A stretch of DNA of 64,000 bases from Acidimicrobiales bacterium. Lineage in GTDB: Bacteria; Actinomycetota; Acidimicrobiia; Acidimicrobiales; GCA-2861595. The notes under the pieces are model-generated. The model did not search any database, was not told where the DNA came from, and was given only the letters and a program-made list of their open reading frames with translations. How positions within the stretch are numbered: the stretch's first letter is position 1; the number at the start of each line of letters is the position of its first letter. Where the stretch lies: contig DATLFN010000146.1 of NCBI GenBank assembly GCA_035540975.1, positions 14,010-78,009 of the forward strand, read 5' to 3'. The position numbers and the translations under genes are program-made. Of this stretch, positions 27,850 to 54,774 are shown in pieces.

Positions 27850-27922
27850 GGGCTCGTAGCTCAGTGGTCAGAGCAGGGGACTCATAATCCCTCGGTCGCT
27901 GGTTCGATCCCAGCCGGGCCCA
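27850..27922 (+). tRNA. tRNA-Met (anticodon CAT at 27883-27885), elongator type; CCA not encoded
   Basis: Acceptor GGGCTCG/CGGGCCC (one G-U pair). D-arm tagctcagtggtcagagc. Anticodon stem-loop GGGGA-CTCATAA-TCCCT. T-arm GCTGG-TTCGATC-CCAGC. Discriminator A. Confidence 0.9.
27878..27921 (+). repeat. attL-side direct repeat (3' 44 nt of tRNA-Met)
   Basis: ggactcataatccctcggtcgctggttcgatcccagccgggccc. Confidence 0.85.
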
Positions 27923-28001
27923 CCGGAAAACGCAGGTCAGGGCGCTATCCGGTGTTGCCGCTTCGGCCGAGCTACCCTCGAACCCAACAGCAGCCCAACA
28001 A

Positions 28002-29220
28002 GTGTTGGAGGGTGCGGTGGCCGGGAGCCTGCGGGAGAAGAGCCCGGGAGTGTGGGAGCTTCGGGTCTACCTGGGCCGCGATGCGGCCGGCAAGGTGCGA
28101 CACAAGCACGCCCGCTTCCGCGGCGGGAAACGCCAGGCCGAACGGGAGCTGGCCCGCCTGGTCGCCGAGTTGGACGCCGGCGACGGCGACATTCGTCCCG
28201 GACTGGGGGCCGGAGACGACGATCAACGACGCCGTCGTCGGCTGGCAGCGGAACGGGTGGGACGACCTCAGCCCGAGCACGGTCCGGCGGTACCGCAGCA
28301 TCTGGAAGGTCCACGTCAAGGACGACATCGGCCGCCGCAAGATCCGGGCGCTCGGCCCGTACGACGTGGAGTGCTACCTGCGAAAGCTCAAGCGGGCGGG
28401 CCAGAGCGAGTCGAGCGTCCACCAGATCCGTGCCATCCTCCACCGAGCCTGCCGCCTCGCCCGCAAGTGGAGCGGCAACCGCCTCCCGAACCCGGTGGCC
28501 GACACCGACCTGCCGGAGTGGGCGCTCCCGGAGAAGGCCGAGCATGTGCGGGCGCCGGAGCTCGGCGAGGTCCGGGCCGTGCTCGCCGCCGCTCGTGGCT
28601 ACGACCGGCGCGTGGCCGCCTTCATCCGCGTGGTCGCCGCCTCGGGAGCCCGACGTGGCGAAGTGTGCGCGCTGCGGTGGTCCGACGTCGACTGGGACCG
28701 GTTTTCGGTGCGGATCGACGAGGCCGTCGTCGCCGACGACGGTGGGGTCATTGTGAAGAGCCCTAAGAACCGGTCCAGCGTGCGGGTGGTGGCGCTCGAC
28801 GCGGCCACCCTTGACGAGCTGCGCGAGCTCAGGGACGAACGCGGCGTGGTGGCCGAGGCGTGCGGAGTGGAGGTGGTGGCCGAGGGCTTCGTCTTCTCCA
28901 CTGAGCCCTCGGGCGAGGCCCCTCCCAACCCCGACAGCTTCACCCATGCGTTCACCCGTTGCCGCGACCTGGCCGGCGTCGCCTCGGACGTTCACCTCCA
29001 CTCGCTCCGTCACTTCCAGTCGACCAGGCTCGACACGGTCATCTCCGAGGCCCAGAAGCAGGCGCGGATGGGTTGGGCCAGCGTGCACATGTCCCGCCAC
29101 TACACCGATGCCATCACCGAGGAGGACCGCCGAGCCGCCGAGCACATCGGCGAGGCGCTGGGTGAGTCAGCGGACGGTGGTGAACCGCTCCGGCGCTCGG
29201 CGGTCCGCTTCCGGCCGTAG
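28002..29220 (+). pseudogene. Tyrosine recombinase/phage integrase, frameshifted near 28175-28200
   Basis: The N-terminal arm-type domain reads in the frame of 28002 (AGSLREKSPGVWELRVYLGRDAAGKVRHKHARFRGGKRQAERELARLVAELDAGDGD). The remainder reads in the frame of 27952 (FVPDWGPETTINDAVVGWQ...ASGARRGEVCALRWSDVD...HLHSLRHFQST...MGWASVHMSRHY: R, HxxR and Y catalytic blocks). Confidence 0.8.
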
Positions 29221-29443
29221 CGGGCTCCGGGTTGTCGTCTGCTCCACCATGGAGGTCACCGGCGATGAGCCGCTCGAGCGAGCGCCGAGCGATCCGGTAG
29301 CGGCCGTTGATGGTGAACACGGGCACGGGGACGTCATCCCGCTCGATGGCCCGGTAGAGCGCCGAGCGGCTCTGGCCGAGGATGTCAGCCGCCTCCTCGA
29401 CGCTCACGAGCGGTGCGTTGTGCTTGTCCCTGGAGATCGGCAT
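29114..29443 (-). CDS. Excisionase-like MerR/HTH_17 DNA-binding protein
   Basis: AAGGA lies upstream of ATG 29443. LVSVEEAADILGQSRSALYRAIERDDVPVPVFTINGRYRI is typical Xis/AlpA-type HTH. The unstructured tail overlaps the 3' end of int (convergent). Confidence 0.7.
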   Translation of the reverse strand: MPISRDKHNAPLVSVEEAADILGQSRSALYRAIERDDVPVPVFTINGRYRIARRSLERLIAGDLHGGADDNPEPATAGSGPPSAGAVHHRPLTHPAPRRCARRLGGPPR

Positions 29444-29689
29444 GTTCCATCCTTCGTGTTGTCTCGTGCGTCCGGACACGGCGGCTTGGCGTGGTGGCGC
29501 TGTCGTCCGTCGGTGTCCCGGTATCCACGTGCTGGATGCCAGTCGAAAGCGCGACGGGCGTCGTTGACACGCGCGAGCGCTCAGCGCCGTTGTCGCTTTG
29601 CGATAACGGCAAGTCTGTGTCGGGTCGGTTGTTGACGCGGGGTGGTTCGTCGACGACGCGGGGGATCTCTGTTCGTACGGTGGTGGATC

Positions 29690-29915
29690 ATGACCAGATG
29701 GACGATCGAGATCGACGAGCAGGTGGCTGAACGGGTCGTGCAAGCCGCGGCCGAGCAGGGTGTCGCGCCCGAGCGATCTCACCGGCGAGGTGCTCGCCCG
29801 GCAGTTCCGGGCCCGCCGCCGGCGGCTCACCTTTGCCGGCGTGGACGCCTCCGGTTCCCGCCGCGGAGCTGCCCATGCCGATGGGATGCTGACTGAAGGA
29901 TTCGGGCGCGGCTGA
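29690..29915 (+). pseudogene. RHH antitoxin (VapB-like) remnant, frameshifted near 29770
   Basis: MTRWTIEIDEQVAERVVQAAAEQGVAPE in one frame. It continues as DLTGEVLARQFRARRRRLTFAGVDASGSRRGAAHADGMLTEGFGRG* in the +1 frame. The stop TGA is followed by G, then TTG of the PIN remnant. Confidence 0.5.
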
Positions 29916-29916
29916 G

Positions 29917-30090
29917 TTGCTCGTCGTCGACACCGGCCTGCTTGTGGCCGCGCCGATCGGGACCAAACACGACACGAGCTGCTTCTCGGCCTCGTTGCCA
30001 TCGCCGGACGGCTGGACGCCAGTCCGCCTCCGACGATCCCAGCCTGACTTGCGACCACACACTTCGATGCCTTCGACCTGCTCCCGTGTC
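29917..30090 (+). pseudogene. PIN-domain toxin (VapC-like) remnant, internally deleted/frameshifted
   Basis: N-terminus LLVVDTGLLVAA (PIN Asp box). A C-terminal-like HFDAFDLLP lies in another frame about 150 nt later. The middle of the domain is missing. Confidence 0.45.
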
Positions 30091-30893
30091 GACGACGGTT
30101 GCGGCGACATCAGCAAGTCCGGCGCTGAGCGGCACAGCAGCTTGCGGCGTGTGGCCGAATTCGGCTCGACGCGTTCCAGTTTGCCAATCAGCGCCGGGCA
30201 GTGAGCGGTTCGGGCCTCGGCACGGTCCTCAGAGCACCACCAGTACCGACCGGTAGCTCTCGGCACGCTGGGCGGCGAGCAGGGGCGATCTCGGATGGTC
30301 GACGGCCAGGTCGGAGCGCTGAGTGTTACCGGGCGGTCGCACCGCAGGAGCTCGCATGAGTATGGGTCGCAAGAAATGCCGGAAAGCCGACGAGCGGGCC
30401 AGGCGGAAGAGAGCGGCCTGCCGAGAGGGGTTTCGTCCGCAGGGGTTCCCGGGGCAGCCGACGCCGGCTGCCCCTTCGACGCGGGATAACGCTCGTCGTG
30501 AGCGCGCTGACTTATCTCCACCGTACGAAGTCCGGACTATTTCGAGCTCATCGCCGTGAAGGGGTAGTATGCTGGATTAGCCAGGTTGACGTGTGAGCGT
30601 CGGCACGAACCGCACACCTTGGTCGGTGAGCTACCCCGGACCCGGTGGCGCAAGTCTCGAAATGGAAGAGGAGCGCCATTCATGCCCAGGTGGTTCGTAG
30701 CCGTTCGGCCCCCATGCAGAGTGATCCGGTGGTCTCCCGCAGCGAATGAGAGAGCGGGAGCACGGCTGCGTCATTCCCATGTCACCGACAGCGCAGCGCT
30801 CGGAGGCGGTGAGATCGTTCCCATCCGTATGCTCGCCGGGGCCGGCGCCCCGGTCGCTCTCAGGTTCACCGCGATCCTCCTTCGGGAGGCAGC

Positions 30894-32066
30894 GTGAGTG
30901 CACCACGGGTGGCCCTGGCCCATGACTTCCTCACCCAGCGCGGGGGAGCCGAGCGGGTGTTCCTGGCCATGGCCCGTGCCTTCCCGGAGAGCCCCATCCT
31001 GACCACGCTGTACGAGCCGTCGGCCACCTACCCCGAGTTCGCCGACCACGAGGTGCGCACCAGCCCGCTCCAGCGGGTGCGCCCCCTCCGGCGCCACTTC
31101 CGGGCCGGCCTGCCGCTGTACCCGTGGGCGGTGCGCCGGCTGGGCCCTGTGGACGCCGACGTGTTGGTGTCGTCGAGCACCTCGTTCGCCCACGGGATGC
31201 GCTCCCAGGGCTGTCACATCGGGTACCTCTACAGCCCACCCCACTGGCTGTGGGACACGGCCCGCTACGTCGGCGCGTCCAGATCGGCCGTCCTCGCCAA
31301 GCGTCTGCTCGGGCGCATGCGGACACTCGACCTGGCGGCGGCCGCCACCCCGCACCTGTTCGTCACCTGTTCGGCCAACGCCGCGGGCAAGATCTACGAC
31401 ACCTACGGCCGCTGGGCCGAGGTGCTGCCCCCGCCGGTTCGCCGGCGGCCGGCGGTGGCCGAACAGGGCGACTTCTTCCTCGTCGTGTCCCGGCTGCTCC
31501 CTTCCAAGGGCATCGACGCGGCTATCGGGGCCGCCGGGCTGCTCGGGGCCCGGCTGGTGGTCGTCGGCCGGGGGCCCGACAGTGGGCGGCTGCACGCGCT
31601 GGCCGGGTCGGGCGTCGAGTTCCGGGAGCGGGTCGTCGACGCCGAGCTCGACGACCTGTACGCCCGTTGCGTAGCCCTGGTCATGCCGGGCGACGAGGAC
31701 CTTGGCCTGGTGCCCATCGAGGCCAACTCGGCCGGCCGGCCGGCCGTCTGCCTGGCCCGCGGCGGCGCCCTCGAGACCGTGGTCCCGGGCGAGACGGGCC
31801 TGTTGGTGGACACCGCCGACGCCGGCACCCTGGCCGAGGCCCTGGCCGCTGCCGCCGGGCGGGCGTGGGACGCCGACGCCCTGCAGCGCCACGCCGACGG
31901 CTGGTCCGAGGAGGCCTTCGCTCGGAAGCTCCGCCTGCTCGTGGAGCACTTTCCGGGCTGGTGCCGCCGCTGCGGCGGCGAGGGGCTCGGGCCCTACCCC
32001 ATGCAGGCCGTCCTCGACCGCTATGGCGACGCGGCCGGCGCCCAAGAGACGGCGGAGGCACATTGA
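30894..32066 (+). CDS. Glycosyltransferase family 4 (GT-B)
   Basis: GTG 30894. RVALAHDFLTQRGGAERV...FFLVVSRLLPSKGID...EDLGLVPIEANSAGRPAV...GGALETVVPGETG (E-x7-E type block). Confidence 0.85.
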   Translation: MSAPRVALAHDFLTQRGGAERVFLAMARAFPESPILTTLYEPSATYPEFADHEVRTSPLQRVRPLRRHFRAGLPLYPWAVRRLGPVDADVLVSSSTSFAHGMRSQGCHIGYLYSPPHWLWDTARYVGASRSAVLAKRLLGRMRTLDLAAAATPHLFVTCSANAAGKIYDTYGRWAEVLPPPVRRRPAVAEQGDFFLVVSRLLPSKGIDAAIGAAGLLGARLVVVGRGPDSGRLHALAGSGVEFRERVVDAELDDLYARCVALVMPGDEDLGLVPIEANSAGRPAVCLARGGALETVVPGETGLLVDTADAGTLAEALAAAAGRAWDADALQRHADGWSEEAFARKLRLLVEHFPGWCRRCGGEGLGPYPMQAVLDRYGDAAGAQETAEAH

Positions 32067-33385
32067 TGCGGCCGGCGCTCTTCGTGGCGGCCGGCGTCCT
32101 CGGCGGCGTCATCAGCGCGCTGGCCAGCGTCGAGTTGGGGCCGATCGCCGTTGTTGCCGGTGCCGCCTTGGTGGCGGTGGTAGCCGCCACGAGGGACCGC
32201 CCGGCCGCCACCGCCCTGCTCCTGCCGCTGTGCCTACTGCCGTACGCGCTCAACGCCGGGGGCCTGCTGGTGAGCCTGAGCGACGGGCTACTCCTCGTGG
32301 TCGGCGCCGTCCTCCTGGTGGACTGGGCCGTCGGCCGCCAGCCCGGCCCGCTACTGGGGCCTTTGGCGGTTCCGGCCGTGGGGTTCGTGGTGTGGACGGC
32401 GGCGTCGGCGGCGTGGGCCGCCGATCCCGGGCGGGTCCTGGTGGAGACTTCCCAGCGGGCCGCCCTGGTGCTGCTGGGCGTCGCCGTCGTCCATGCGATG
32501 CCGGCCGACGGCCGGGCGGTGCGCCGGGCCGTGGTGGGACTCGTCGCCGGGTCCGCTGCGCTCGGAGCGGCCACCACTATCACCGGCGCCATCCAGGGGC
32601 GGTGGTTCGCCGTCTACGCGCTCGGGATGCACAAGAACTGGATCGGCTTCGTCCTGTCGTTCGGGCTCGTCGCCGTGGTTGCCATGGCACTGACGGACCA
32701 CCGCCGCCCACGGGGCCTGATGGCCGCCGCCGCCGTGTCGATCGCCTCCGGCCTGGTGCTCTCCGGGTCGCGCGGCGCGTGGGTCGGGACCCTCGCCGCT
32801 CTGGCACTGCTCGCCGCATTGAACCGTCCCTCGCTGGCGTGGCCGGCCGGTTCGGTGGCGGCCGTGGCCGTGGCCCTGGTGCTGGTCGCCGTGCCCGGCA
32901 ACGTGTTCTCGGGCGTCCACGAACCCGACCCCGACACCAGCGCCGGCACCCGGGTGCTCACCTGGTCGAGCGGACTGGCCACAATCCGCCGCCAGCCGGC
33001 GCTCGGAGTGGGCGCCGGCAATTTCCTGGCCGTCGTGAAGGGCCGGGGGAGCCAGGGCGACCCCAACAACCTGCTCCTCCTCACCTGGGCCGAGACGGGC
33101 GTGTTCGGCGTCGTACTGCTGGGCGGCATAGTGGTGGGCACCTTGAGGCTGGCGACACGGAACTCGGGCCGGTGGGCCGCGGGTGGGCAGGCCCATCTCG
33201 CCAGCCTGGCCGGAGCGGGCATCTTCGTGGCCGCGCTCGCCCATGCCCAGTTCGACATCTTCTGGACCCGGGGGGTCGCGCTGGCCACGTTCATGGGCGC
33301 TGGCCTGGTGCTGTGGGCCCATCGCCACGGTGACGCCACCTCTTCCCCCCGTCCACCCCGACTCACGATGACGAGCGCCCCATGA
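32066..33385 (+). CDS. O-antigen ligase/polymerase-like (Wzy_C) polytopic membrane protein
   Basis: ATGA overlap with the upstream stop. At least 10 hydrophobic segments. A periplasmic-loop block SGSRGAWVG...GVGAGNF is typical of the Wzy/WaaL family. Confidence 0.8.
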   Translation: MRPALFVAAGVLGGVISALASVELGPIAVVAGAALVAVVAATRDRPAATALLLPLCLLPYALNAGGLLVSLSDGLLLVVGAVLLVDWAVGRQPGPLLGPLAVPAVGFVVWTAASAAWAADPGRVLVETSQRAALVLLGVAVVHAMPADGRAVRRAVVGLVAGSAALGAATTITGAIQGRWFAVYALGMHKNWIGFVLSFGLVAVVAMALTDHRRPRGLMAAAAVSIASGLVLSGSRGAWVGTLAALALLAALNRPSLAWPAGSVAAVAVALVLVAVPGNVFSGVHEPDPDTSAGTRVLTWSSGLATIRRQPALGVGAGNFLAVVKGRGSQGDPNNLLLLTWAETGVFGVVLLGGIVVGTLRLATRNSGRWAAGGQAHLASLAGAGIFVAALAHAQFDIFWTRGVALATFMGAGLVLWAHRHGDATSSPRPPRLTMTSAP

Positions 33386-35025
33386 TCACGTCTGCCGCCA
33401 CCCAGCCGTCCTCGCTGGCCCAGTACCTGCGCTTCCTCTGGCGCCGCAAGCTTGCCCTGCTCGTACCCGTCGCCGTCGCCGTGAGCGTGGCCAGCGCCGT
33501 CACCCAGCGCCAGACGCCCGTGTACCAGTCGTCCACCGACCTGCTGTTCTCGGCCAGAACGACCGGCGGGGAGGACGCCGCCAGCGGGGTCGGCGTGCGC
33601 ACCGAGGCGCGTATCGCCACCAGCCCGGCCGTGCTGGCCGAGGCGGCCCGGGCCGTGGGTGGCGGCGCCACCGGCCCGTCCCTGGCCGGTGCGGTGCGCG
33701 CTGGCCAGGTGGAGGACCTGGGCGTGCTGCGCATCACCGCCAGGGACGGGTCCCCCGGCCGGGCCCGGCGCCTGGCCGCCGCCGTTGCCACCGCCTATCT
33801 TGACATCGGCCGCCAGCGGGCCGAGGAGGACGTGTCCCGCCAGACGGCGGCCGTCACCGCCCGCCTCGGCGAGTTGACCGGCGACCTCGACCGCCTGGTG
33901 GGGGAGCTGGCCGCCGCCGAGGCGGCCGGTCAGGACGCCGAGGCCGAGGCACTGCGGTCGCGGCGGGACCTGGTCATCGGCGACCAGGCCGTGCAGAAGG
34001 CCCGCCTGCACGAGCTGCGCCTCACCGCGGCCAGCCCCGCCTGGGAGACCTCGATCCTCGTCCCCGCCGGTGTGCCCGGCTCGCCGGTGTCACCGCGCCC
34101 GGCGCGCGCCGCGGCGATCGCCGGCCTGGTGGGCCTGCTCGCCGGCTTCGGCCTGGCCCTGGCCCGGGAGCACCTCGTCGCCCACGTCCGCACGGCAGGC
34201 GAGGTGGAGGGCGCCCTGCGCTCCCCGGTCCTTGCTGTCGTGCCGCGATTGGGCGGCCGCAGGGCCCGCCGCGACCCGTTGGCGGTGCTCGACCGGCCCG
34301 ACTCCCAGGTGGCCGAGGCGTACCGGATCGTGCGATCCAACCTGGCGGTCGCCGGGGTGGGCGAGGACCAGCGGGTGCTGCTGGTGACCAGCGCCCTGGC
34401 CGGCGAGGGGAAGTCGACGGTCGCCGTCAACCTGGCCATCGCCTTCGCCGAGAGCGGTGTCGACACCATGCTCGTCGACGCCGACCTGCGCCGCCCCCGC
34501 CTGCACCGGATGCTGGGCCTGCCCAACGAGCGGGGCCTGACCACCGTGCTCGACCAGCGCCTCCACCCCGCTGAGGTCGCCGGGGTGGTGGACACCGCCC
34601 ATCTGAGCGGCTCCCTGGGCTGCCTCACGGCCGGGCCCTCCCAAGCTCAGCCGACCAGCACGCTGTCCGGGCCGGCGATGGAGGCTGCCCTGGGGTCGCT
34701 GCGCCAGAGCCACCTGGTGATCGTCGACAGCCCTCCCGTCCTGCCCCTTGCCGATGCAGGAGTGTTGAGCACCCGAGCCGATGCGATCGTCGTCGTGGTG
34801 CGCCCCGAGATGGTGAGCACCGGCCTGCTCGACGAGCTGCGGGCCCGCCTGGCCCAGGCCGGCGCCACCGTGGTGGGCGTGGTCGTCAACGCCGCCGACC
34901 CCGGCACCTTCGAGGCCTCCGGCACCTATGGCTACGGCTACGGCTACGGCGAGGCGCGTGGGCGCCATTCCGTACGTGAGGATGAGCGCTCCCGGTTCTT
35001 CCGCACGACCAGGAACGCCGGCTGA
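33382..35025 (+). CDS. Polysaccharide co-polymerase (Wzz) fused to BY-kinase (tyrosine autokinase)
   Basis: N-terminal TM plus coiled-coil plus second TM. Walker A SALAGEGKSTVAVNLA. A' MLVDADLRRP. Walker B LVIVDSPPVL. C-terminal Tyr cluster GTYGYGYGYG. Confidence 0.85.
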   Translation: MITSAATQPSSLAQYLRFLWRRKLALLVPVAVAVSVASAVTQRQTPVYQSSTDLLFSARTTGGEDAASGVGVRTEARIATSPAVLAEAARAVGGGATGPSLAGAVRAGQVEDLGVLRITARDGSPGRARRLAAAVATAYLDIGRQRAEEDVSRQTAAVTARLGELTGDLDRLVGELAAAEAAGQDAEAEALRSRRDLVIGDQAVQKARLHELRLTAASPAWETSILVPAGVPGSPVSPRPARAAAIAGLVGLLAGFGLALAREHLVAHVRTAGEVEGALRSPVLAVVPRLGGRRARRDPLAVLDRPDSQVAEAYRIVRSNLAVAGVGEDQRVLLVTSALAGEGKSTVAVNLAIAFAESGVDTMLVDADLRRPRLHRMLGLPNERGLTTVLDQRLHPAEVAGVVDTAHLSGSLGCLTAGPSQAQPTSTLSGPAMEAALGSLRQSHLVIVDSPPVLPLADAGVLSTRADAIVVVVRPEMVSTGLLDELRARLAQAGATVVGVVVNAADPGTFEASGTYGYGYGYGEARGRHSVREDERSRFFRTTRNAG

Positions 35026-39428: not shown

Positions 39429-39991
39429 GCCTGGCGCGGCGGCGCCGGAGAGTCATTGGGCGGGTGCGCGCCCGTGTGTGGGCGATGCGGTGGCGAGGCG
39501 TGACAGTGGGGCGCAGGGCGGTGGTCGGCAGGTGGTGCCGCCTCGTCCTCGAGCCCGGCGCCCGGCTGAGCATCGGCGACGGGTGCGAGGTCGACGACGG
39601 GACGACCCTGGCCGTGTACGGCGGCGCCACCCTCGACCTCGGGAGCTCGTGCTTCCTCGGCCACCACTGCACGATCGCGAGCCGACGCTCGGTCAGCATC
39701 GGCCGGGGGACGTTCCTGGCCGAGCTCGTCTCGGTACGCGACCACGATCACGACCCCGCTTTCCCACCCTCGGCCGGGGCCACCAGGGTGGCGCCGGTGA
39801 CGATCGGGCCGGACGTGTGGCTGGCTTCCAAGGTCACGGTCCTGAAGGGGTCCACCATCGGCGGGCGGGCCGTCATCGGCGCCCACGCCCTGGTTCGGGG
39901 CGAGGTCCCCGCCGGGGCCGTCGCCGTCGGGGCGCCGGCCCGGGTGGTCCGCCACATCGGCGAGCAACCGGTGCCGGAGCGGGCAGGATGA
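39425..39991 (+). CDS. Hexapeptide-repeat (LbH) O-acetyltransferase
   Basis: IGDGCEVDDGTTL, LGSSCFLGHHCTI, IGRGTFLAELVSV, IGPDVWLASKVTVLKGSTIGGRAVIGAHALV are left-handed beta-helix repeats. 4-nt overlaps at both ends. Confidence 0.8.
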   Translation: MSLARRRRRVIGRVRARVWAMRWRGVTVGRRAVVGRWCRLVLEPGARLSIGDGCEVDDGTTLAVYGGATLDLGSSCFLGHHCTIASRRSVSIGRGTFLAELVSVRDHDHDPAFPPSAGATRVAPVTIGPDVWLASKVTVLKGSTIGGRAVIGAHALVRGEVPAGAVAVGAPARVVRHIGEQPVPERAG

Positions 39992-44182: not shown

Positions 44183-44191
44183 CGTCGCTGG

Positions 44192-45942: not shown

Positions 45943-46091
45943 CCCTGTCTCCCCGTCCCCGACGAGGGTGTGACACCGGCGATGGCCGCATCTGCGGCCT
46001 ACGGGCACACGTCGACGTTCCCCCGATTCGGCAACGCTGCGAAGCGGTGTCGACGCGACCCGGCTCGGGCAGAGCCGAGCCGGTGGGTCCG

Positions 46092-47144: not shown

Positions 47145-47361
47145 GGACCAGACACGACGAAGTCGCTATTTCGCCGTTCCATACCCTCGCGTCGGCGCCC
47201 GAGCGGTGCCCGCCGAGGGGGCACCCATGCTGCGCTCGAGCGATCGTTGTACCGCTGGGCCGGTCCAGGTACGCCCGGTCGCGCCTGCCCCGGCCCCCAT
47301 GGTCTCGTGTCGGAGCGGTGGCAACGTTCTCGCTCGCCCTGCATGGTGCCGAGGCTGACTC

Positions 47362-48102
47362 ATGAGGCGACGAGCCCGGCTGATGGCGCTCGGACGCCGA
47401 GCGCTGAGGGCGCGCGGCATCGAGGTCGTGGCGGCCGAGCGGGCGTCCCTGTTGCCGCTGCACCTGTCCCGGCTATTCGCTCAGGAGAAGATCGACCACG
47501 TCCTCGACGTCGGCGCCCAGATCGGTCGTTACGCGGTGTCGCTCCGCGACATGGGCTACAGGGGTGAGATCTGGTCGTTTGAGCCGGTCAGCATCAGCCA
47601 CGAGGTATTGGCGGAGAAGGCTGCCTCCGACCCGCTCTGGCGGGTGTTCAACCTGGCGCTCGGAGCCGAGGCTGGAGAGGCCTCCATCAACGTCGCCATG
47701 GGTTCGGACTTCAGCTCGTTCCTCTCGCCGACCGAGATGGCACTGTCCGCCCCTCATCTGCGAGCGGTAGCCCGGGCGAGAACCGAGAACGTGCGAGTGG
47801 CCACCCTGGACGAGATCTTCGAGCGGGAGCCTGCCCTGCGAGACCGTCGCATCCATCTGAAGCTGGACACGCAGGGCTTCGACCTCGAAGTGCTGGAGGG
47901 CGCGGCGACGCTGATGCCCTTCGTGCGGTCGATGCAGACGGAGGTGTCCCTGCAGCCGGTCTACGAGGGCATGCCGGATTTCACCGAGTCGCTCGCCGTA
48001 GTGGCCAGCCTCGGATTCGCCGTGTCAGGTTTCTTTCCTGTTGCGGTCAATCCTGACCTGTCGGTGATCGAACTCGACTGCGTGGCCGTACGCCGCCGAT
48101 GA
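47362..48102 (+). CDS. FkbM-family methyltransferase
   Basis: VLDVGAQIGRYA...NLALGAEAGEASINV...HLKLDTQGFDLEVLEGA are Methyltransf_21-type blocks. Confidence 0.8.
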   Translation: MRRRARLMALGRRALRARGIEVVAAERASLLPLHLSRLFAQEKIDHVLDVGAQIGRYAVSLRDMGYRGEIWSFEPVSISHEVLAEKAASDPLWRVFNLALGAEAGEASINVAMGSDFSSFLSPTEMALSAPHLRAVARARTENVRVATLDEIFEREPALRDRRIHLKLDTQGFDLEVLEGAATLMPFVRSMQTEVSLQPVYEGMPDFTESLAVVASLGFAVSGFFPVAVNPDLSVIELDCVAVRRR

Positions 48103-48184
48103 CCGGACCGCTGGCGCTGTCGACAGCAGGTGGGACGAGCGGACTGGGCTTCGCCAGGCACGCGGCGCAGGCACGGTAGTTCGG

Positions 48185-49117
48185 GTGACCCCGATGGAAC
48201 CCGTCGTCGCGGCGGTCATACCCGCGTACAACCCCGGTCCCTTCCTCGCTGAAGCGCTCCGTTCCGTGGTTGCGCAGGACTACCAGGCCTGGGAATGCGT
48301 GGTCGTCGATGACGGTTCCTCCGAGGACCTCTCGTGGGTGGACCGGGAGGACCCGCGGATCTGCCGCCTTTCCCGACCCAACCGGGGCCCGGCCGCGGCG
48401 AGGAACGCCGGAGTCGCGGCCACCGCTGGCAGGTATGTCGCCTTCCTCGATGCAGATGACGCCTGGAGGGAGGACAAGCTGGCTCGTCAGGTGGCGGTGT
48501 TGGAGGCGGAGCCCAGTTCCGTGCTGTGCCATACCGGCGCCGAGCTCATCGACAGCCGTAGCGGTGTCATCGGCCGCTGGCCGTACGCACGCAGGATCGA
48601 TGGCTACGCCGACCTCTTCCTCGGGAACGGGGTCGCGGTCTCCAGCGCGATGGTGCGCCGAGCCAGCCTGATCGAGGCGGGTGGGTGGAACGTGTTCCAG
48701 CGGACGGCCGAGGACCTCGACCTCTGGCTTCGCCTGAGCATGCTCGGAGGCTTCGCCTACGACGACAACCCACTCGCCCGGTATCGTCGGCACGGCGGCA
48801 ACGTGTCGGGGAATGCTGTCCTCATGGCGGCCGGGGTCGACTCCGTCCTGCGCCAGCACGAGGAGCTCGCCCGTCGGCGTGGCGACAAGGTGCTGGAAAG
48901 ATCGGTTCGAGCGGCGCGCCGGGCGGCCCAACTGGGCTGGGGCGCGTCCGCATTCGACCAGGCGCGTGGGGCCCTCGGCGACCATGAAGCGGGCCTGTTC
49001 GTGCGCCGATGGAGCGAGGCGCTCCGGCTCAACCCCCGCTACACGCTGCGTGCGACAGGACGCTACCTCCTGCGTCGAGGTCGCCACTCAGATCCTCGCG
49101 TTTCAATTCGACCATGA
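48185..49117 (+). CDS. Glycosyltransferase family 2
   Basis: VAAVIPAYNPGPFLAEALRSVVAQDY...VVVDDGSSED...VAFLDADDAW...EDLDLWLRL. Confidence 0.85.
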   Translation: MTPMEPVVAAVIPAYNPGPFLAEALRSVVAQDYQAWECVVVDDGSSEDLSWVDREDPRICRLSRPNRGPAAARNAGVAATAGRYVAFLDADDAWREDKLARQVAVLEAEPSSVLCHTGAELIDSRSGVIGRWPYARRIDGYADLFLGNGVAVSSAMVRRASLIEAGGWNVFQRTAEDLDLWLRLSMLGGFAYDDNPLARYRRHGGNVSGNAVLMAAGVDSVLRQHEELARRRGDKVLERSVRAARRAAQLGWGASAFDQARGALGDHEAGLFVRRWSEALRLNPRYTLRATGRYLLRRGRHSDPRVSIRP

Positions 49118-49690: not shown

Positions 49691-49696
49691 AGGACG

Positions 49697-50515
49697 GTGG
49701 ACCTCGAGAAAGTGCTCCGAGCCAAGCTGCCCCCGCCGGCCTACGCTGGGGCGCGGATGGCGTACAGGTGGCGACGGAGTGCTGTACGCGCTCGCCGACA
49801 ACACCGGCTCGACCTGGCGGCGAGCCGCGCCGTCGCGGAGGCTGCCGTATGGAGGGTGCAGCGCGGCCCGTTCAAGGGGCTTCGCTACGTCGAGGCATAT
49901 GGTGATCTTGGCGCGAAGATTCTTGGTTCCTACGAGCAGGAGCTTCACCCGACAATCGAGCAGTTGATCGCGGTTGGGTACGACAACATCGTCAACGTAG
50001 GTGCAGCCGAGGGTTATTACGCCGTCGGGCTCGCCTGGCGGGTACCCGCAGCCAATGTCATCGCCTACGAGATCAGTGAGAAGGGACGGGTTCTCTGCGC
50101 CGAGCTGGCTTTGCTGAACGGGGTGACGGTGGAGGTCCGCGGGGAGTTCACCCTCGCTGAGCTCAAGCTCATACCGGCTGGTCGGACGCTGGTCATCATG
50201 GACATCGAGGGCGGAGAACTTGCGTTACTCGACCCGGACCTCGAGCCGCGGCTGCTCGACGCCGACCATCTCGTGGAACTGCACGACTTCATCGATCCGA
50301 CGATCAAGCCGACGCTTCTGCGCCGCTTCGGCGCTACGCACGATTGCCGCATCCAGCGCACAGCAGATCGTTGCGCGAATGACTATGCCGAACTGACTGT
50401 CTCGACTAGGCGGGTTTTGAACGAGCACCGTCCAGGCCCCATGGAGTGGGCCATGATGAGCCGCCACTCGTACGATCGATCCGGCCGAAACCAGAGGGGC
50501 CCAGCCGGGACCTGA
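49697..50515 (+). CDS. Putative SAM-dependent methyltransferase-like protein (atypical composition)
   Basis: GSYEQELHPTIEQLI...NIVNVGAAEGYYAVGLA...VIAYEISEKG...LVIMDIEGGELALL resembles FkbM/class I MTase motif I and post-I. Codon usage is less GC3-biased. Start uncertain. Confidence 0.55.
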   Translation: MDLEKVLRAKLPPPAYAGARMAYRWRRSAVRARRQHRLDLAASRAVAEAAVWRVQRGPFKGLRYVEAYGDLGAKILGSYEQELHPTIEQLIAVGYDNIVNVGAAEGYYAVGLAWRVPAANVIAYEISEKGRVLCAELALLNGVTVEVRGEFTLAELKLIPAGRTLVIMDIEGGELALLDPDLEPRLLDADHLVELHDFIDPTIKPTLLRRFGATHDCRIQRTADRCANDYAELTVSTRRVLNEHRPGPMEWAMMSRHSYDRSGRNQRGPAGT

Positions 50516-50585: not shown

Positions 50586-51299
50586 TCACGCCCCCGTGCG
50601 CTGGAGGACGACGGGGACGGTACAAGCGAGCAGGACCAGGTCCCCGCCGAACGACCGGTTTTCGACGTAGTCGAGGTCCAGCGACACGTAGTCCTCGAAC
50701 GAGGAGCTGTGGCGGCCGGACACCTGCCAGGGGCCGGTGATGCCCGGCTTGGCCGACAGGCGCCCGGCGGTGCGCGCGTCGTAGGTGGCCACCTCCGACG
50801 GCAGGGCCGGACGGGGCCCGACCAGGCTCATGTCACCCGCCACCACGTTGAGCAACTGGGGCAGCTCGTCCAGGCTGAGTTTGCGCAGCCAGCGCCCGAC
50901 TCCGGTCACCCGGGGGTCGTTCTCGAGCTTGAACAGCGGCCCGTCAGCCTCGTTGGCCGGCTGCAGCAGGTCCCGTAGGGCGTCGGCGCCCACGACCATG
51001 GAACGGAACTTGAGGATCACGAACACCCGCCCGTCGAGGCCGACCCTGCGCTGCCGGTAGAGAACCGCGCCAGGACTGTCGATGCAGACGAACAGAGCGA
51101 TGAGGAGCAGGAGCGGTACGGCAGCGACGAGGACGACGGTGGCGACGACCACGTCGAAGACGCGCTTGGCCGCCAGGCCCAGCCGCCGGTCGCCTCCAAT
51201 TGCCCGGGAGCGGTTGGTGTGGTCCCCGAGCCGACTGCCGCGGGGCATGCCACGCCGCTCGGCGGAGCGCGGGGCAAGAGGCAGAGCGGCGGGGGGCAT
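50586..51299 (-). CDS. Initiating phosphoglycosyl transferase (bacterial sugar transferase, small WbaP/EpsL type)
   Basis: KRVFDVVVATVVLVAAVPLLLLIAL (TM), VLYRQRRVG, ILKFRSM, DELPQLLNVVAGDMSLVGPRP, KPGITGPWQVSGR. Confidence 0.9.
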   Translation of the reverse strand: MPPAALPLAPRSAERRGMPRGSRLGDHTNRSRAIGGDRRLGLAAKRVFDVVVATVVLVAAVPLLLLIALFVCIDSPGAVLYRQRRVGLDGRVFVILKFRSMVVGADALRDLLQPANEADGPLFKLENDPRVTGVGRWLRKLSLDELPQLLNVVAGDMSLVGPRPALPSEVATYDARTAGRLSAKPGITGPWQVSGRHSSSFEDYVSLDLDYVENRSFGGDLVLLACTVPVVLQRTGA

Positions 51300-51461: not shown

Positions 51462-53348
51462 TTGATGACCGCACCGCCCCTTCCGCGCCCCGCTCCCCGT
51501 CGCCGACGCGCCCGTGCCCGCCTGGTGTGGGCCCTCCTACTGGTCACCGCGTCGGCCACGCTGGCCGCTGCCGGTGCCGGCAAGGCCCTGTGGTCGGCGC
51601 GCCCGTCCCTTGCCACCGCCGCCGGGGCCGCCGAAGCGGGGCTGGCCGCCGCCAGGTCGGGCGACCGGGAGGGTGCCGAGCAGGCGCTGGGTGCCGCCGA
51701 AGCGGCCTTCGGGCGTGGCCGGGTTGCCCTGGATGCCTGGTACGCCCGGCCGGCGCTGGCCGTTCCCGTCGTCGCCCAGCAGCTGCGGGCGGCACGGGCG
51801 GTGGCCAGAGCCGGACAGGAGACCGCAGCCGAGGCCCGGGTCGTCGCCGGGGCCGATGCCGCCGGCATCCGGGTCCAGGCCGGGCGTCTCGACCTCGACC
51901 GCGTCAAAGCGGTCGAGGCGCCTCTGGCCGCCCTAGCCGCCACCCTCGGACGTGAGCACGCCCGGGTGGGCGCGGCTCGCTCGCCGTGGCTGCTGCCTCC
52001 CCTGGCCAATGCTGTCGACCGGACCGAGGCTCGCCTGGCCTCGGCCCATCGTGACGCGGACCGGGCCGCCGGGGCCGCTCAGCTGGCTTCTGCGCTGCTC
52101 GGTGGGCATGGCCCACGCCGTTGGTTCCTGGCCGTTCAGAACCCCGCCGAAGCCCGTGCTGCGGGAGGCATCATCGGCAACTACGGCGTGCTGGTGGCGG
52201 AGAACGGCCGCCTGCGTATCGAACGGTTCGGTCGCACCTCGGAGCTCAACGATGCCGCCTCGGCGGCCGAGCCCACACTCGAGGGGCCGGCGGACTTCCG
52301 GGCCCGCTACGCCCGCTTCGCCCCTGAGCGGGTGTGGCAGAACGTGACGATGTCGCCCCACTTCCCGTCGGTGGCCGAGGCGGCCGAGGGTCTCTATCGT
52401 CGCCAGGGCGGCGGGGTGGTCGACGGCGTGGTGAGCGTCGACCCCGCCGGCTTGGCCGCCCTCCTCGCCCTCACCGGGCCGGTGGCGGTGCCCGGCTGGC
52501 CCGAGCCGCTCAGCGCCGCCAACGCCGTTTCGGTCCTGCTCCACGACCACTACCTCCGCTTCGAGGGCGACGAACGCGTCAGGTTCCTTGGCATCGCCGC
52601 CGAGGCGGTGTGGTCTCGTCTGGCCGCCGCCGACATGCCCCCCATGCCTGTCGTCGTCAGCGGCCTGGCCCCTGCGGTGGCCGGCAAGCACATCCTGCTC
52701 CACAGCACCCGCCCCGCCGAGCAGCGGGCCCTGAGCCGCCTGGGCGCGGCCGGCGCCCTGCAGCCCGTGCGGAGCGACGCCTTCGGCCTGGTGACCCAGA
52801 ACGCAGGCGCTAACAAGGTCGACTGGTTCCTCCGGCGCTCGATCTCGTACCGTGCCCGCTTCGACCCGACCAGCGGCCAGATGGACGCAGTGGCCGACAT
52901 TCACCTCGAGAACCGGGCGCCGGCCAGCGGCCTCCCCGCCTACGTGCTGGGAGGGCCCGGCGCCGGCCCCGGCCCGCCCGGCGACAACCGCGTCTACCTG
53001 TCGGTGTACACACCACTGCGCGCACGCGCCGCCACCGCCGACGGGCAGGTCGTCCCGCTCGAGGTCGGGAGGGAGCGGGGCCGCAACGTGTACTCGGCAT
53101 ACGTCACCGTTCCGCCGGGCGCCACGCTGGCGGTGCGCATCACGCTGGAAGGCGAGGTGGCCCCCGGCCCCTACCGCCTCGACATCCTCCGCCAGCCGAT
53201 GGTGGAGCCCGACCGCGTAAAGGTCGAGGTGCGCTCCAGACCCACCGGGAGTTCCTCCCGGCCCACCCCAGACGGAGGTCCCATGATCATCGACGAACTC
53301 CTGCGGCTCGACGCCGACACGGTGCTCACCGCGAAGGACGGCCGATGA
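51462..53348 (+). CDS. DUF4012-like membrane-anchored protein common in actinobacterial glycan clusters
   Basis: N-terminal TM. Block RRWFLAVQNPAEARAAGGIIGNYGVLVAENGRL matches my memory of the DUF4012 signature (QN.AE.R..GG..G). Confidence 0.75.
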   Translation: MMTAPPLPRPAPRRRRARARLVWALLLVTASATLAAAGAGKALWSARPSLATAAGAAEAGLAAARSGDREGAEQALGAAEAAFGRGRVALDAWYARPALAVPVVAQQLRAARAVARAGQETAAEARVVAGADAAGIRVQAGRLDLDRVKAVEAPLAALAATLGREHARVGAARSPWLLPPLANAVDRTEARLASAHRDADRAAGAAQLASALLGGHGPRRWFLAVQNPAEARAAGGIIGNYGVLVAENGRLRIERFGRTSELNDAASAAEPTLEGPADFRARYARFAPERVWQNVTMSPHFPSVAEAAEGLYRRQGGGVVDGVVSVDPAGLAALLALTGPVAVPGWPEPLSAANAVSVLLHDHYLRFEGDERVRFLGIAAEAVWSRLAAADMPPMPVVVSGLAPAVAGKHILLHSTRPAEQRALSRLGAAGALQPVRSDAFGLVTQNAGANKVDWFLRRSISYRARFDPTSGQMDAVADIHLENRAPASGLPAYVLGGPGAGPGPPGDNRVYLSVYTPLRARAATADGQVVPLEVGRERGRNVYSAYVTVPPGATLAVRITLEGEVAPGPYRLDILRQPMVEPDRVKVEVRSRPTGSSSRPTPDGGPMIIDELLRLDADTVLTAKDGR

Positions 53349-53998
53349 CTGCTCGCCGAGTGCTCACCACGCTGGTTGGCCTCGCTGCGGTGCTGATGCT
53401 CGCGTCCCCGGCTGCCGCCCAGTACCCGCCGTCGGACCAGCAGCTGACCGTGACCGACGCCTCCCCTGAGCCTGGTCAGGAGGTCCAGGTCGCCGGAGAC
53501 GGCTTCATGCCGGGGAGCACGGTGTCGATCTACTTCGAGTCGGTCCCGGTGCTGCTGGCCACCGCGACCGTGGACCAGCAGGGCCACTTCGCGGTGTGGG
53601 TGCGCATCCCCCGCGATGCCGAGCAAGGCTGGCACCTCTTCCGGGTCAAGGGCACCGGGACCGACGGCCGCCCTCGCGAGCTGACCATCCCCATCTACGT
53701 GTCCGCCGCATCGGGATCGACCGGTCAGCGGGCTCCGGCCGTCGCTAAATCGTCGCCGCGAACAGCAGTCGGCGTCGCGGCGATCCTCGTGGCCGGCTTG
53801 ATCGCCCTGACGCTGGTCTCCCGGCACCGTCGCCGGGCCCACCTCCAGCCGGCACCGGCCCCGTCGGCTCTGTCGCGACCGGATCCCACGAACCCCTCCG
53901 GCGCCACTGCTGACGACCGCTGGGGCCTCGGGAGAAGGGCGCACGGCCACACGGACCGCGAGCAGGCCGACGAGCAGGTGGAGGTCGAGCCCTCATGA
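53345..53998 (+). CDS. Secreted Ig-like protein with C-terminal TM anchor
   Basis: 4-nt overlap with the upstream gene. Signal peptide LVGLAAVLMLASPAAAQ. Beta-sandwich-like LTVTDASPEPGQEVQVAGDGFMPGSTVSIYF. TM AVGVAAILVAGLIALTLV plus RHRRR. Confidence 0.6.
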   Translation: MTARRVLTTLVGLAAVLMLASPAAAQYPPSDQQLTVTDASPEPGQEVQVAGDGFMPGSTVSIYFESVPVLLATATVDQQGHFAVWVRIPRDAEQGWHLFRVKGTGTDGRPRELTIPIYVSAASGSTGQRAPAVAKSSPRTAVGVAAILVAGLIALTLVSRHRRRAHLQPAPAPSALSRPDPTNPSGATADDRWGLGRRAHGHTDREQADEQVEVEPS

Positions 53999-54166
53999 GG
54001 GAACCTCAGCAGCGGTGACGGGAACGACGTTCCCGGAGCGGACCAGGGGTGATGACCCCGGAGGAGCCGCCATCTGGCGCCGGCCCGGCCATGACTGTCG
54101 GAGGCGTGGCCAAGCCCCGCGGCGGTCGAGCGCCGTGGCTGTAGCTCGACCTACCCGTCCAGTCCG

Positions 54167-54600
54167 ATGCAGCGTTCGCGGGGGAGGGGCAGTGACCGGC
54201 ATGCGGTGGTGATCGCAGGAGGCGGCCCGACCGGGCTGATGTTGGCGTGCGAGCTGGCGTTGGCGGGGATCGACGTCGTCATCGTCGAACGATGCGCCAG
54301 TCAGGGCGTCGACGGATCACGAGCCGGGGGTCTTCACTCCCCGCCCCATCAAGGTGCTCGATCAGCGTGGCATCGTGGAACCATTCTCTCGGGGGGCAAG
54401 AACAGCCGAGCGTGAGCTACTCCATGGTCCTTGGACATCAGCGACTTCTTCACCCGCCACAACTACTTGCTCGCGCTCTGGCAGAGCCGACTTCGAGCCC
54501 TCTTGGCCGGCTGGGTCGGTGAGCTAGGGATTCCGACCCCCCGGGCTGCGGGGTGGTGGCCTTCGCTCAGGACGACACCGGCGCGTGTCCCAACATCCGG
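54167..54600 (+). pseudogene. FAD-dependent monooxygenase remnant (frameshifted and 3'-truncated)
   Basis: VVIAGGGPTGLMLACELALAGIDVVIVER (GxGxxG) in one frame. LDISDFFTRHNYLLALWQS...LAGWVGELGIP is in a second frame and VVAFAQDDTG in a third. It ends about 130 nt before attR. Confidence 0.6.
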
Positions 54601-54730
54601 CCCAACAAACTCGTCCGGCGATGTCCGCCAACGTCCTTGACCTCTCTGGTGGAATCTCACAATGTCCTTTTCCCACATGGGTTCTGCGACACCAGGGGAG
54701 CGGCGAGGAGCGCTCGCAGCGGCTCAGATC

Positions 54731-54774
54731 GGACTCATGATCCCTCGGTCGCTGGTTCGATCCCAGCCGGGCCC
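54731..54774 (+). repeat. attR-side direct repeat (tRNA 3'-half remnant)
   Basis: ggactcatgatccctcggtcgctggttcgatcccagccgggccc. Differs from 27878-27921 at one base (54739 G vs 27886 A). No tRNA 5' half lies upstream. Confidence 0.85.

Follow-up and report, generated by a model that had tools for sequence, protein, structure and literature searches.

The analyzed window was a 64-kb stretch of an Acidimicrobiales bacterium genome (GCA_035540975.1, contig DATLFN010000146.1, positions 14,010-78,009 of the forward strand), and all coordinates below refer to it. An intact tRNA-Met gene, a displaced fragment of the same gene and the intervening integrase, excisionase and glycan genes were arranged as follows.

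27123-27803, + strand: Pro/Thr-rich membrane-anchored protein, 226 aa, left host flank, outside the island (ortholog in the relative L195)
27850-27924, + strand: intact tRNA-Met(CAT), regenerated target, attL (ARAGORN; Rfam RF00005, 70.5 bits)
27983-28000, + strand: tandem CCCAACA-N4-CCCAACA, P' arm, putative arm-type integrase site (motif search)
28017-28193, + strand: N-terminal 59 codons of the integrase (arm-binding region), out of frame with the remainder (tblastn)
28192-29220, + strand: core-binding and catalytic domains of the integrase, PF00589 (Pfam, tblastn)
29114-29443, - strand: excisionase-like HTH_17 protein, convergent with the integrase (PF12728, E = 1.7e-9)
29444-30893, no strand: low-GC stretch (0.67-0.68), no supported gene (composition; Pfam)
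30894-32066, + strand: GT4 glycosyltransferase (Pfam; 390 aa in independent contigs)
32063-33385, + strand: Wzy_C-family polymerase/ligase-like membrane protein (PF04932, E = 6e-17)
33382-35025, + strand: polysaccharide co-polymerase fused to a BY tyrosine autokinase (Wzz, GNVR and ParA-like domains)
35026-36165, + strand: GT4 glycosyltransferase (Pfam)
36162-39428, + strand: fused GT2-GT4-GT4 glycosyltransferase, 1088 aa (Pfam)
39425-39991, + strand: hexapeptide-repeat acetyltransferase (Pfam; 188 aa in independent contigs)
39988-41115 and 41193-42362, + strand: two GT4 glycosyltransferases (Pfam)
42359-44182, + strand: fused TMD-NBD ABC exporter of the HepA/MsbA/PglK type, candidate flippase or exporter (Pfam)
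44276-44896, + strand: methyltransferase (Pfam)
44896-45942, + strand: GT4 glycosyltransferase (Pfam)
46083-47144, + strand: GT4 glycosyltransferase (Pfam)
47383-48102, + strand: FkbM methyltransferase (Pfam)
48185-49117, + strand: GT2 glycosyltransferase (Pfam)
49697-50515, + strand: 272-aa protein, no recognisable family (Pfam, NCBIfam)
50586-51299, - strand: small polyprenyl-phosphate phosphoglycosyl (priming) transferase (PF02397, E = 3e-62; TIGR03025-like)
51462-53348, + strand: DUF4012 protein (Pfam)
53345-53998, + strand: 217-aa signal-peptide/TM protein
54167-54540, + strand: truncated FAD-dependent monooxygenase pseudogene, about the first 125 codons left, with frame changes (PF01494)
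54589-54607, + strand: tandem CCCAACA-N5-CCCAACA, P arm (motif search)
54731-54777, + strand: attR, displaced partial copy of tRNA-Met that spans the anticodon stem through the 3' end; tRNA positions 37 and 73 are both G
54808-55239, - strand: CBS-pair protein, 143 aa, right host flank, outside the island (Pfam; ortholog in L195)

The 3' part of the tRNA-Met gene was repeated directly (27878-27924 versus 54731-54777), with 45 of 47 nt identical and a start-to-start spacing of 26,853 bp. The original prediction had described this repeat as the last 44 nt of the tRNA with one mismatch; the repeat was real, but it was found to be 47 nt long and to carry a second mismatch, A27922/G54775, at the discriminator base (tRNA position 73). 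The mismatch that had been reported just 3' of the anticodon, A27886/G54739, was confirmed and assigned to tRNA position 37. A 26-nt core of the repeat matched just two places in the window when up to 3 mismatches were allowed (expectation of 0.00 from 100 shuffles), and a sensitive search with the tRNA revealed no third tRNA-Met remnant longer than 12 nt in the whole 64 kb. The repeat was not part of a wider duplication. By direct reading of the sequence, G1:C72 and the anticodon stem of the tRNA were not initiator-like. The attR sequence was identical across 10 same-species contigs. Among the relatives, L195 and L101 had A at both positions 37 and 73, and the copies of L098 and L100, which stop short of position 37, had A at position 73.

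An empty site, predicted to show tRNA-Met directly before the CBS gene, was found in the related metagenome contig L195, where a left-flank ortholog (66% aa), an intact tRNA-Met and a CBS ortholog (79% aa) follow one another. The CBS gene corresponded to the 143-aa ORF at 54808-55239 and not to a 306-aa ORF; no Pfam family was assigned to the 226-aa left-flank protein. When L195 was aligned to the real window, two HSPs were obtained (27214-27927 and 54731-55930) that overlapped exactly on the att core, whereas a window with the island deleted in silico gave a single HSP of 1250 bp. The insertion and its exact ends were regarded as shown, as were the family anatomy and the integrase lesion. In another relative, L101, the CBS gene was adjoined by a stretch of 62 nt or more of the tRNA, with the D arm included, in a syntenic Sacchrp_dh/HGLS context. 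In L098 (CBS 88%) the site was occupied differently: a chemotaxis operon came after a 26-nt piece of the tRNA.

The insertion can be dated only loosely, L195 being fairly distant (~77% nt in the flanks); the island may have been gained in the lineage of the window, or an ancestral island may have been excised precisely in the lineage of L195. An exact search of the JGI metagenomes yielded no closer, species-specific empty junction. All same-species contigs retrieved carried the island, which is fixed in the sampled population, and no genome with an identical glycan cluster lacking the flanking repeat was found.

Alternatively, a local duplication or rearrangement of the tRNA could have left the 47-nt copy behind, with an ancestral glycan cluster and a small int-xis remnant merely lying beside the tRNA. 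The fixation of the cluster in the population, the host-like composition of its first half and the defective integrase are compatible with such an origin. It was nevertheless judged very improbable. The adjacent flanks in L195 contradict it unless that contig is a chimeric assembly, a family-specific arm motif lies inside attR as well as attL, the anticodon stem is where the fragment starts, as in the commonest tDNA island class (PMC4383910), and the same site is occupied differently in L098.

The integrase gene (28017-29220) started 92 nt past the end of tRNA-Met. The integrase and the Xis-like HTH protein expected directly after the tRNA were both recovered (PF00589 and PF12728), the former in a frameshifted state. 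In tblastn searches with 11 family members, residues 1-59 mapped to frame 1 and all later residues to frame 2. The lesion was a 1-nt insertion, TT instead of T at 28192-28193, and the in silico deletion of one T restored a 400-aa ORF collinear with the family member P0233. The same frameshift was present in 6 independent assemblies. TA (VapB/VapC-like) remnants had also been proposed at 29642-30204; the ORFs in this region (29642-29896, 29917-30204, 29688-30521 and 30586-30897) gave no Pfam match, and that call stays a by-eye one.

Further, 30 loci encoding related integrases (43-64% identical) were scanned. A same-strand tRNA gene was located upstream in 23 of them, with nine tRNA specificities in all, and in 21 of those 23 the tRNA-to-integrase distance was about 95-125 nt; an HTH_17 gene was convergent just downstream of about 30 related integrases. 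An Acidimicrobiales MAG with an unrelated left flank (L102) carried an identical tRNA-Met followed by an int-xis module 86% identical in nucleotides and 91% in amino acids, and its homology to the window started at the tRNA.

Tandem CCCAACA pairs occurred in the 64-kb window only at 27983-28000, 59 nt past the tRNA end and 17 nt ahead of the integrase start, and at 54589-54607, 124 nt inside attR. One pair thus lies just inside each att site, and therefore both ends are tied to one element. A pair was found upstream of int at the matching position in 11 of 24 loci of relatives (L102 and 10 more), whatever tRNA was targeted. A relaxed pattern occurred 30 times in 4.8 Mb of retrieved sequence; among the matches listed, those to the exact pattern were all in att-adjacent arms save one unexplained match in L144. 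It was proposed from these positions that the pairs, present in both the P and P' arms, are putative arm-type integrase sites. The claim that everything up to the second repeat belongs to an integrated element was supported by the empty site in L195 and by the arm motif at both ends.

Serotype-converting phages exist, and an integrase with an excisionase adjoins the tRNA, as would be the case for a prophage or its remnant carrying the glycan genes as a lysogenic-conversion module. Yet capsid, terminase, portal, tail and lysis families were all absent among the island ORFs searched with Pfam, a search of 50,697 phage records gave no integrase relative above 30% identity and IMG/VR just two 26% matches, and members of its family were associated with relaxase and primase genes. 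A prophage origin was thus considered extremely improbable.

Based on all comparisons, the segment 27925-54777 is very probably a genomic island put into the 3' part of the tRNA-Met gene by a tyrosine integrase, with a backbone that has since been eroded. An integrase of an Acidimicrobiia-specific family would have integrated the element, with crossover in or beside the anticodon loop ('A'-type tDNA site). The insertion would have rebuilt the tRNA at attL and shifted the original 3' fragment by 26.85 kb to its place beside the CBS gene. Later erosion would have comprised the 1-nt insertion in the integrase, the disappearance of transfer and replication genes, the truncation of a cargo gene that adjoins the P arm and two A-to-G changes at attR.

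Pfam, run on the called genes of the island and on the main candidate ORFs in its gaps, detected no relaxase, conjugative translocation (FtsK/Tra-type) or replication genes. With a frameshifted integrase, no transfer or replication genes and an attR that has degenerated within the loop where crossover is presumed, the island, judged from its sequence, is probably immobile and no longer a working mobile element. It is an ordinary, degenerate and now-fixed genomic island, and neither a new kind of element nor a new mechanism. It was called degenerate and fixed because of the integrase frameshift, the lack of conjugation, replication and phage genes, the pseudogene at attR, the mosaic cargo and the presence of the island in all same-species contigs.

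The anatomy is that of the tDNA islands catalogued by Islander (Hudson, Lau and Williams 2015), specifically the anticodon-centred 'A' attP class, with a regenerated tRNA and a displaced 3' fragment at the exact ends and a tyrosine integrase within. Fragments starting in the anticodon stem were reported for 2083 of the 3919 catalogued islands, and 'islands with damage' were counted separately (148 of 3919) (PMC4383910). Unlike the intact islands, the one described here has an integrase pseudogene and an attR that differs within the anticodon loop, and it would probably fall among the damaged ones. A tRNA-adjacent tyrosine integrase with Xis is shared with actinobacterial integrative conjugative or mobilizable elements (AICE/IME) targeting tRNA genes. 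Relaxase, replication and FtsK/Tra-type genes are all missing from the island, which resembles an integrated relic of such an element and is not one now.

The presence in the island of Wzy-like, Wzz/BY-kinase, ABC exporter, acetyltransferase, priming transferase and DUF4012 proteins was confirmed by Pfam. The counts of the original prediction were revised: 8 glycosyltransferase genes with 10 GT domains (the 1088-aa protein contributing GT2-GT4-GT4) and the priming transferase were found in place of 9 glycosyltransferase genes, and just 2 methyltransferases in place of 3-4, a third being located outside at 25630-26442. The description of the cluster as 'entire' was overstated, since it has no genes for nucleotide-sugar synthesis and no flippase of the Wzx type. 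The pseudogene matched PF01494 at profile positions 3-47 of 349 (E = 1.7e-11), its extent past 54415 being a reading of the translation.

The GC3 values of the three island zones were 0.911, 0.810 and 0.876 versus 0.935 +/- 0.028 in the flanks, and the integrase-proximal DNA had a GC content of 0.67-0.68. Across its first half, from 30.9 to 42.4 kb, the cluster was nearly host-like in both GC3 and codon use. The atypical block at 42.3-50.5 kb (GC3 0.81) opened with the ABC exporter gene (0.847), continued with genes of 0.76-0.85 in 44276-49117 and included the gene of the 272-aa protein, which had the lowest value in the island (0.755).

The glycan locus had been said to be delivered as an island. 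Its location within the island was upheld, whereas a single-step arrival competes with one other live scenario, given the mosaic composition of the cargo and the truncated pseudogene at the right end. In the other scenario an int-xis element, integrative mobilizable or conjugative and with other cargo including the FAD monooxygenase, integrated first and its backbone was deleted, after which some or all glycan genes, notably those at 42.3-50.5 kb, entered by homologous or illegitimate recombination; the integrase would then not have delivered the glycan locus. This course of events was given a little under an even chance. The three compositional zones and the truncated FAD_binding_3 pseudogene directly adjoining the P arm speak for it. 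Moreover, among the integrase relatives scanned, L127 and L140 carried a TrwC relaxase and L113 a Toprim primase, and none had glycan genes. In the nearest relatives the Bac_transf-DUF4012-217aa module was found at a non-tRNA locus, with PfkB and peptidase M1 as neighbours and a different cluster, of the ABC-2 type, downstream. On the other hand, an internal att remnant, an IS element and a second recombinase were all absent within the island, the cluster is a nearly uninterrupted array of co-oriented genes, and low-GC central blocks are frequent in polysaccharide loci however these were acquired.

The same module of priming transferase, DUF4012 and 217-aa proteins was kept at 57-68% aa identity at a different locus in other Acidimicrobiales, a divergence about equal to that of the flank genes (66-79% aa). 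Such values would fit long residence or a donor within the order and argue against a recent foreign import.

It was also considered that the tRNA/int/convergent-xis elements with CCCAACA pairs may form a previously undescribed Acidimicrobiia family that has switched its target among nine or more tRNA species. The copy in the window would then be an instance of this family carrying whole surface-glycan loci from one uncultured soil actinobacterium to another. No glycan cargo was found in related elements among the integrase relatives scanned, and the proposal was regarded as unlikely; if true, it would represent a natural glycan-cassette shuttle with recoverable intact relatives.

A precedent for a glycan locus in a tRNA island is SPI-7 of Salmonella Typhi, with the viaB Vi-capsule locus at tRNA-pheU. 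SPI-7 is bounded by direct repeats between complete and partial tRNA copies and is mosaic, which is thought to reflect several events (PMC4100779). The island in the window likewise is mosaic and holds a surface-polysaccharide biosynthesis and export locus between complete and partial tRNA copies. However, SPI-7 is 133.5 kb long, keeps conjugative/type IV pilus functions and excises precisely, whereas the present island is 26.85 kb long, has no transfer genes and a frameshifted integrase, and resides in an uncultured high-GC Acidimicrobiales bacterium; its machinery is of the Wzy/BY-kinase and ABC-exporter type, unlike tvi/vex. It provides a cleanly bounded and comparatively verified surface-polysaccharide locus inside a tRNA island in a lineage with almost no genetics, with exact att ends, an empty site and a defined inactivating integrase lesion available together. 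It supports the view that the same island mechanics as are known for enterobacterial capsules also shape cell-surface glycan diversity among uncultured soil actinobacteria, and the integrase/att/arm-motif signature can be used to find intact relatives.

The core of a Wzx/Wzy-type locus was present, namely the priming phosphoglycosyl transferase, the Wzy polymerase and the PCP/BY-kinase. No Wzx (MOP-family)/Polysacc_synt flippase was detected among the island proteins by Pfam and NCBIfam, the sole exporter being the MsbA/PglK/HepA-like ABC protein, whose best NCBIfam matches (HepA, MsbA and PglK) were each under their own cutoffs. We propose that a lipid-linked repeat unit would be assembled at the cytoplasmic face and flipped by the ABC exporter, standing in for Wzx, and that Wzy would polymerise the units under the control of the BY-kinase. 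The glycan may act as a serotype- or phage-receptor-determining structure. The Wzz/BY-kinase scored 115.3 bits against TIGR01007 (cutoff of 108.05) and ended in a Tyr-rich C-terminal tail, GTYGYGYGYGE.

The insertion of the island (27925-54777, 26.85 kb) and its exact ends were established. The window had a GC content of 72%, its best protein matches were to Acidimicrobiales MAGs, and tRNA-Met(CAT) at 27850-27924 was its sole tRNA (ARAGORN, Rfam). The 3' 47 nt of this gene (27878-27924) were repeated in direct orientation at 54731-54777 with 45 of 47 positions identical, the mismatches being A27886/G54739 at tRNA position 37 and A27922/G54775 at the discriminator base. The repeat of the original prediction was real, but its length and mismatches were corrected from 44 nt with one difference. 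A 26-nt repeat core, with up to three mismatches allowed, was present at only two places in the window, against an expectation of 0.00. A sensitive scan of the window yielded no third tRNA remnant above chance, and a tandem accretion with internal att scars was ruled out on this basis. The attR fragment began within the anticodon stem, which is a signature of the 'A' (anticodon-centred) attP class; among tDNA islands this class is the most frequent (2083 of 3919 Islander islands, PMC4383910).

Gene calls were made with a codon-usage model and annotated with Pfam and NCBIfam. The following features were recorded:

27123-27803, +, host P/T-rich membrane protein, left flank
27850-27924, +, tRNA-Met (ARAGORN, Rfam)
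28017-29220, +, tyrosine integrase
29114-29443, -, HTH_17 excisionase-like gene
~29444-30893, no strand, low-GC DNA of ~1.4 kb without a supported gene
30894-49117, +, co-oriented array, part 1: GT4, Wzy_C, Wzz/BY-kinase, GT4, GT2-GT4-GT4 (1088 aa), hexapeptide acetyltransferase; part 2: GT4, GT4, MsbA/PglK/HepA-like ABC exporter, methyltransferase, GT4, GT4, FkbM methyltransferase, GT2
49697-50515, +, orphan 272-aa protein
50586-51299, -, Bac_transf priming enzyme
51462-53348, +, DUF4012 protein
53345-53998, +, 217-aa secreted/TM protein
54167-~54540, +, FAD_binding_3 fragment, pseudogene
54731-54777, +, attR
54808-55239, -, 143-aa CBS-pair gene, right flank

The CBS gene proper was the 143-aa ORF rather than a 306-aa one.

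Same-species contigs from many independent JGI, ENA and Logan assemblies were 99.6-99.99% identical to the window. The island was carried by all those retrieved, and no exact match to a species-specific empty junction was found in JGI metagenomes. Samples containing this population include JGI 3300072977, 3300072979 and 3300028040 and ENA ERZ27256747/51. Four relatives were recruited via the CBS protein. In L195 (CBS 79% aa), the left-flank ortholog (66% aa) was followed by an intact tRNA-Met and, 4 bp further on, by CBS; hence, the empty site that had been predicted, tRNA-Met followed by CBS, was found. The L195 sequence aligned to the window in two HSPs (27214-27927 and 54731-55930) overlapping on the att core, and to the window with the island deleted in silico in a single 1250-bp HSP of 77% identity. 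L101 (CBS 76%) was syntenic for Sacchrp_dh, HGLS, two small ORFs and CBS. Its tRNA-Met lay 370 bp from CBS and was preserved over at least 62 nt, with the D arm, before the contig ended. In L100 (CBS 93%), the tRNA 3' end lay 34 bp from CBS, at the contig end. The CBS gene of L098 (CBS 88%) adjoined only a 26-nt tRNA-Met 3' fragment (L098:1331-1356, JGI 3300063058), which extended from the T arm to the CCA end with A73. Directly after it came the motif GCCCAACAACAAC, and then a chemotaxis operon (RR-GGDEF, MCP, CheA, CheW, CheY, CheB), suggesting that the hotspot is occupied here by another island or by a deletion derivative. A further candidate, L099 (CBS 74%), was dropped as non-syntenic and probably a paralog.

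Positions 37 and 73 of the tRNA were A in L195 and L101, as was position 73 in L098 and L100, the tRNA copies of which stop short of position 37. The two Gs of the window attR were therefore derived, and may represent decay after integration or heterology of attP.

The left flank was also followed through a TrkA-like protein. A genome-collection scan returned 80 loci, none of them syntenic with the window flanks, and no tRNA was found near the homologs in the 20 closest of them; the gene was thus of no use as an anchor. For the TrkA-type K+ channel gene (24585-25619), the homologs in L004-L008, which are other Acidimicrobiales MAGs, were 73-76% identical (aa), shared no neighbour genes with the window and lacked any tRNA within 10 kb. 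At this evolutionary distance, little synteny is conserved to the left of the island. Five independent same-species assemblies (L104-L107, L111) broke within the left-flank gene at 27414-27617, 230-430 bp upstream of the tRNA, L107 with a 69-bp inverted end artefact, and this region was spanned by a 118-kb contig only. Strain variation or the low-complexity sequence of the P/T-rich gene may account for the breaks.

The tandem CCCAACA-N4-5-CCCAACA occurred only twice in the 64-kb window, both times on the same strand. The first pair (27983-28000) was located 59 nt inward of attL, with int starting 17 nt further on, and the second (54589-54607) 124 nt inward of attR. The tandem was also present between the tRNA and int in L102, an Acidimicrobiales MAG (GCA_036262515.1), and in 10 further relatives, whatever tRNA was targeted. 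A relaxed pattern occurred 30 times in 4.8 Mb of fetched sequence, and among the matches listed those to the exact pattern were all in att-adjacent arms except one in L144. From this distribution, we infer the pairs to be candidate arm-type integrase sites, the first in the P' arm and the second in the P arm. On that reading, the sequence bordering attR on the island side would be the other arm of the same attP, and both island ends would belong to one element.

The L144 pair (L144:4654-4672) was on the opposite strand, 1.8 kb downstream of an integrase without an upstream tRNA, and may mark a second element or the other arm of a small one. In place of the CCCAACA tandem, a tRNA-Ile subclade (L121-L124, L142) had the conserved palindrome GGCCAACAATTGTTGGCC upstream of int, and a tRNA-Ala subclade (L125-L133) had the conserved GTCCCTACAAC ... 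GTAGGGAC. Upstream motif and integrase subclade appear to change together.

All 11 family members tested aligned to the window integrase in two frames, with a break at residue 59. The alignment with L102 revealed one extra T in the window at 28192-28193, and in silico removal of one T restored a 400-aa ORF, the translation of which kept the catalytic motifs ARRGE, HSLRH and RHYTD. The lesion was identical in six independent assemblies and was thus not a sequencing error. The N-terminal 59 aa gave no match to Pfam arm-binding models. In lambda-type integrases, N-terminal residues bind arm sites, and by position and likeness to these enzymes the 59 aa are a putative arm-binding region, uncoupled by the frameshift from the remainder of the protein. 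No transfer or replication genes were recognised by Pfam among the called genes and main gap ORFs of the island, and a truncated monooxygenase gene adjoined the P arm. Based on these three features and the anticodon-loop mismatch, it was concluded that the island is most likely immobile.

The L102 integrase (P0233) was intact, 400 aa long and 91% identical to that of the window, and its gene directly followed a tRNA-Met identical to the window's. The two loci shared 86% nucleotide identity over 1.9 kb, from the tRNA to the point where the L102 contig (DATAIT010000028.1) stops, 565 bp beyond int; the genes upstream were unrelated. The integrase module itself is mobile. A metagenome scan gave 80 loci with related integrases, and tRNAs were searched in 30 of the closer ones (43-64% identical). 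A same-strand tRNA gene (Lys, Thr, Leu, Val, Glu, Ile, Ala, Met or Arg) preceded the integrase in 23 of the 30, ~95-125 nt away in 21. A convergent HTH_17 gene lay just downstream of ~30 related integrases. The cargo of the relatives included a TrwC relaxase (L127, L140) and a Toprim primase (L113); glycan genes were absent from those examined. For 24 related integrases, the 1-11 kb of downstream sequence that could be searched contained no attR copy. A prophage or plasmid origin was rejected on integrase searches: neither the 50,697 phage records nor the 72,556 plasmids searched included a relative above 30% identity, and IMG/VR returned two 26% matches only.

By membership tests the element was neither an ICE nor a prophage, and it passes Islander-type tDNA-island tests, demonstrated excision aside. 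The closest precedent is SPI-7, a mosaic, excisable island with the viaB capsule locus between complete and partial tRNA-pheU copies (PMC4100779). The window island is a degenerate tDNA island, well documented yet unsurprising, from an under-studied phylum.

Where nine glycosyltransferase genes and 3-4 methyltransferases had been predicted, eight glycosyltransferase genes (10 GT domains) plus the priming enzyme, and two methyltransferases, were counted inside the island; the VapB/VapC-like ORFs proposed at 29642-30204 lacked Pfam support. The BY-kinase scored above the TIGR01007 cutoff and had the C-terminus GTYGYGYGYGE. Neither nucleotide-sugar synthesis genes nor a MOP-family Wzx were annotated in the island by Pfam/NCBIfam. 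In the proposed pathway, the small PGT would prime the polyprenyl-phosphate carrier, the glycosyltransferases, methyltransferases and acetyltransferase would make a decorated repeat unit, the ABC exporter would act as the flippase in place of Wzx, and Wzy would polymerise the units under the control of the PCP/BY-kinase. The glycan is plausible as a putative serotype or phage-receptor determinant.

The cargo is a compositional mosaic. Flank genes had a GC3 of 0.935 +/- 0.028 and a flank-trained CAI of 0.756; the respective values were 0.911 and 0.680 at 30.9-42.4 kb, 0.810 and 0.495 at 42.3-50.5 kb, and 0.876 and 0.634 at 50.5-54 kb. Strongly atypical values were confined to the central block, which begins with the ABC exporter and includes the orphan gene; the first half was nearly host-like. 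The Bac_transf-DUF4012-217aa module was 57-68% identical to its nearest relatives, in which it occupied a non-tRNA locus beside PfkB and peptidase M1, behind a different ABC-2 type cluster. Against a one-step arrival with the element, later assembly or swapping in of the glycan cluster was considered a tentative but serious possibility.

Within the cluster, the same-species contig L091 (4708-6809, JGI 3300072777) had the DUF4012 gene called at 497 aa versus 627 and ~600 bp uncalled before Bac_transf, and the length called for the orphan gene (49697-50515) was 219 or 272 aa, depending on the sample. These differences hint at strain-level indels or pseudogenisation.

Outside the island, an ArsR-size ORF, a MIP aquaglyceroporin and an LMW phosphotyrosine-phosphatase/ArsC-type protein formed an arsenic-resistance-like trio at 6526-8271. 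No other candidate for a BY-kinase phosphatase than this last protein was seen in the window, but its gene context points to arsenate reduction. A tandem 9-bp repeat, GCCTCGTCG, of about 8-11 copies was located at 57202-57303 in a Usp-domain protein gene (56932-57672). Same-species alignments broke at 57250-57257, the gene was called at 218, 227, 245, 249 or 251 aa across samples, and the array looks like a variable-number in-frame repeat.
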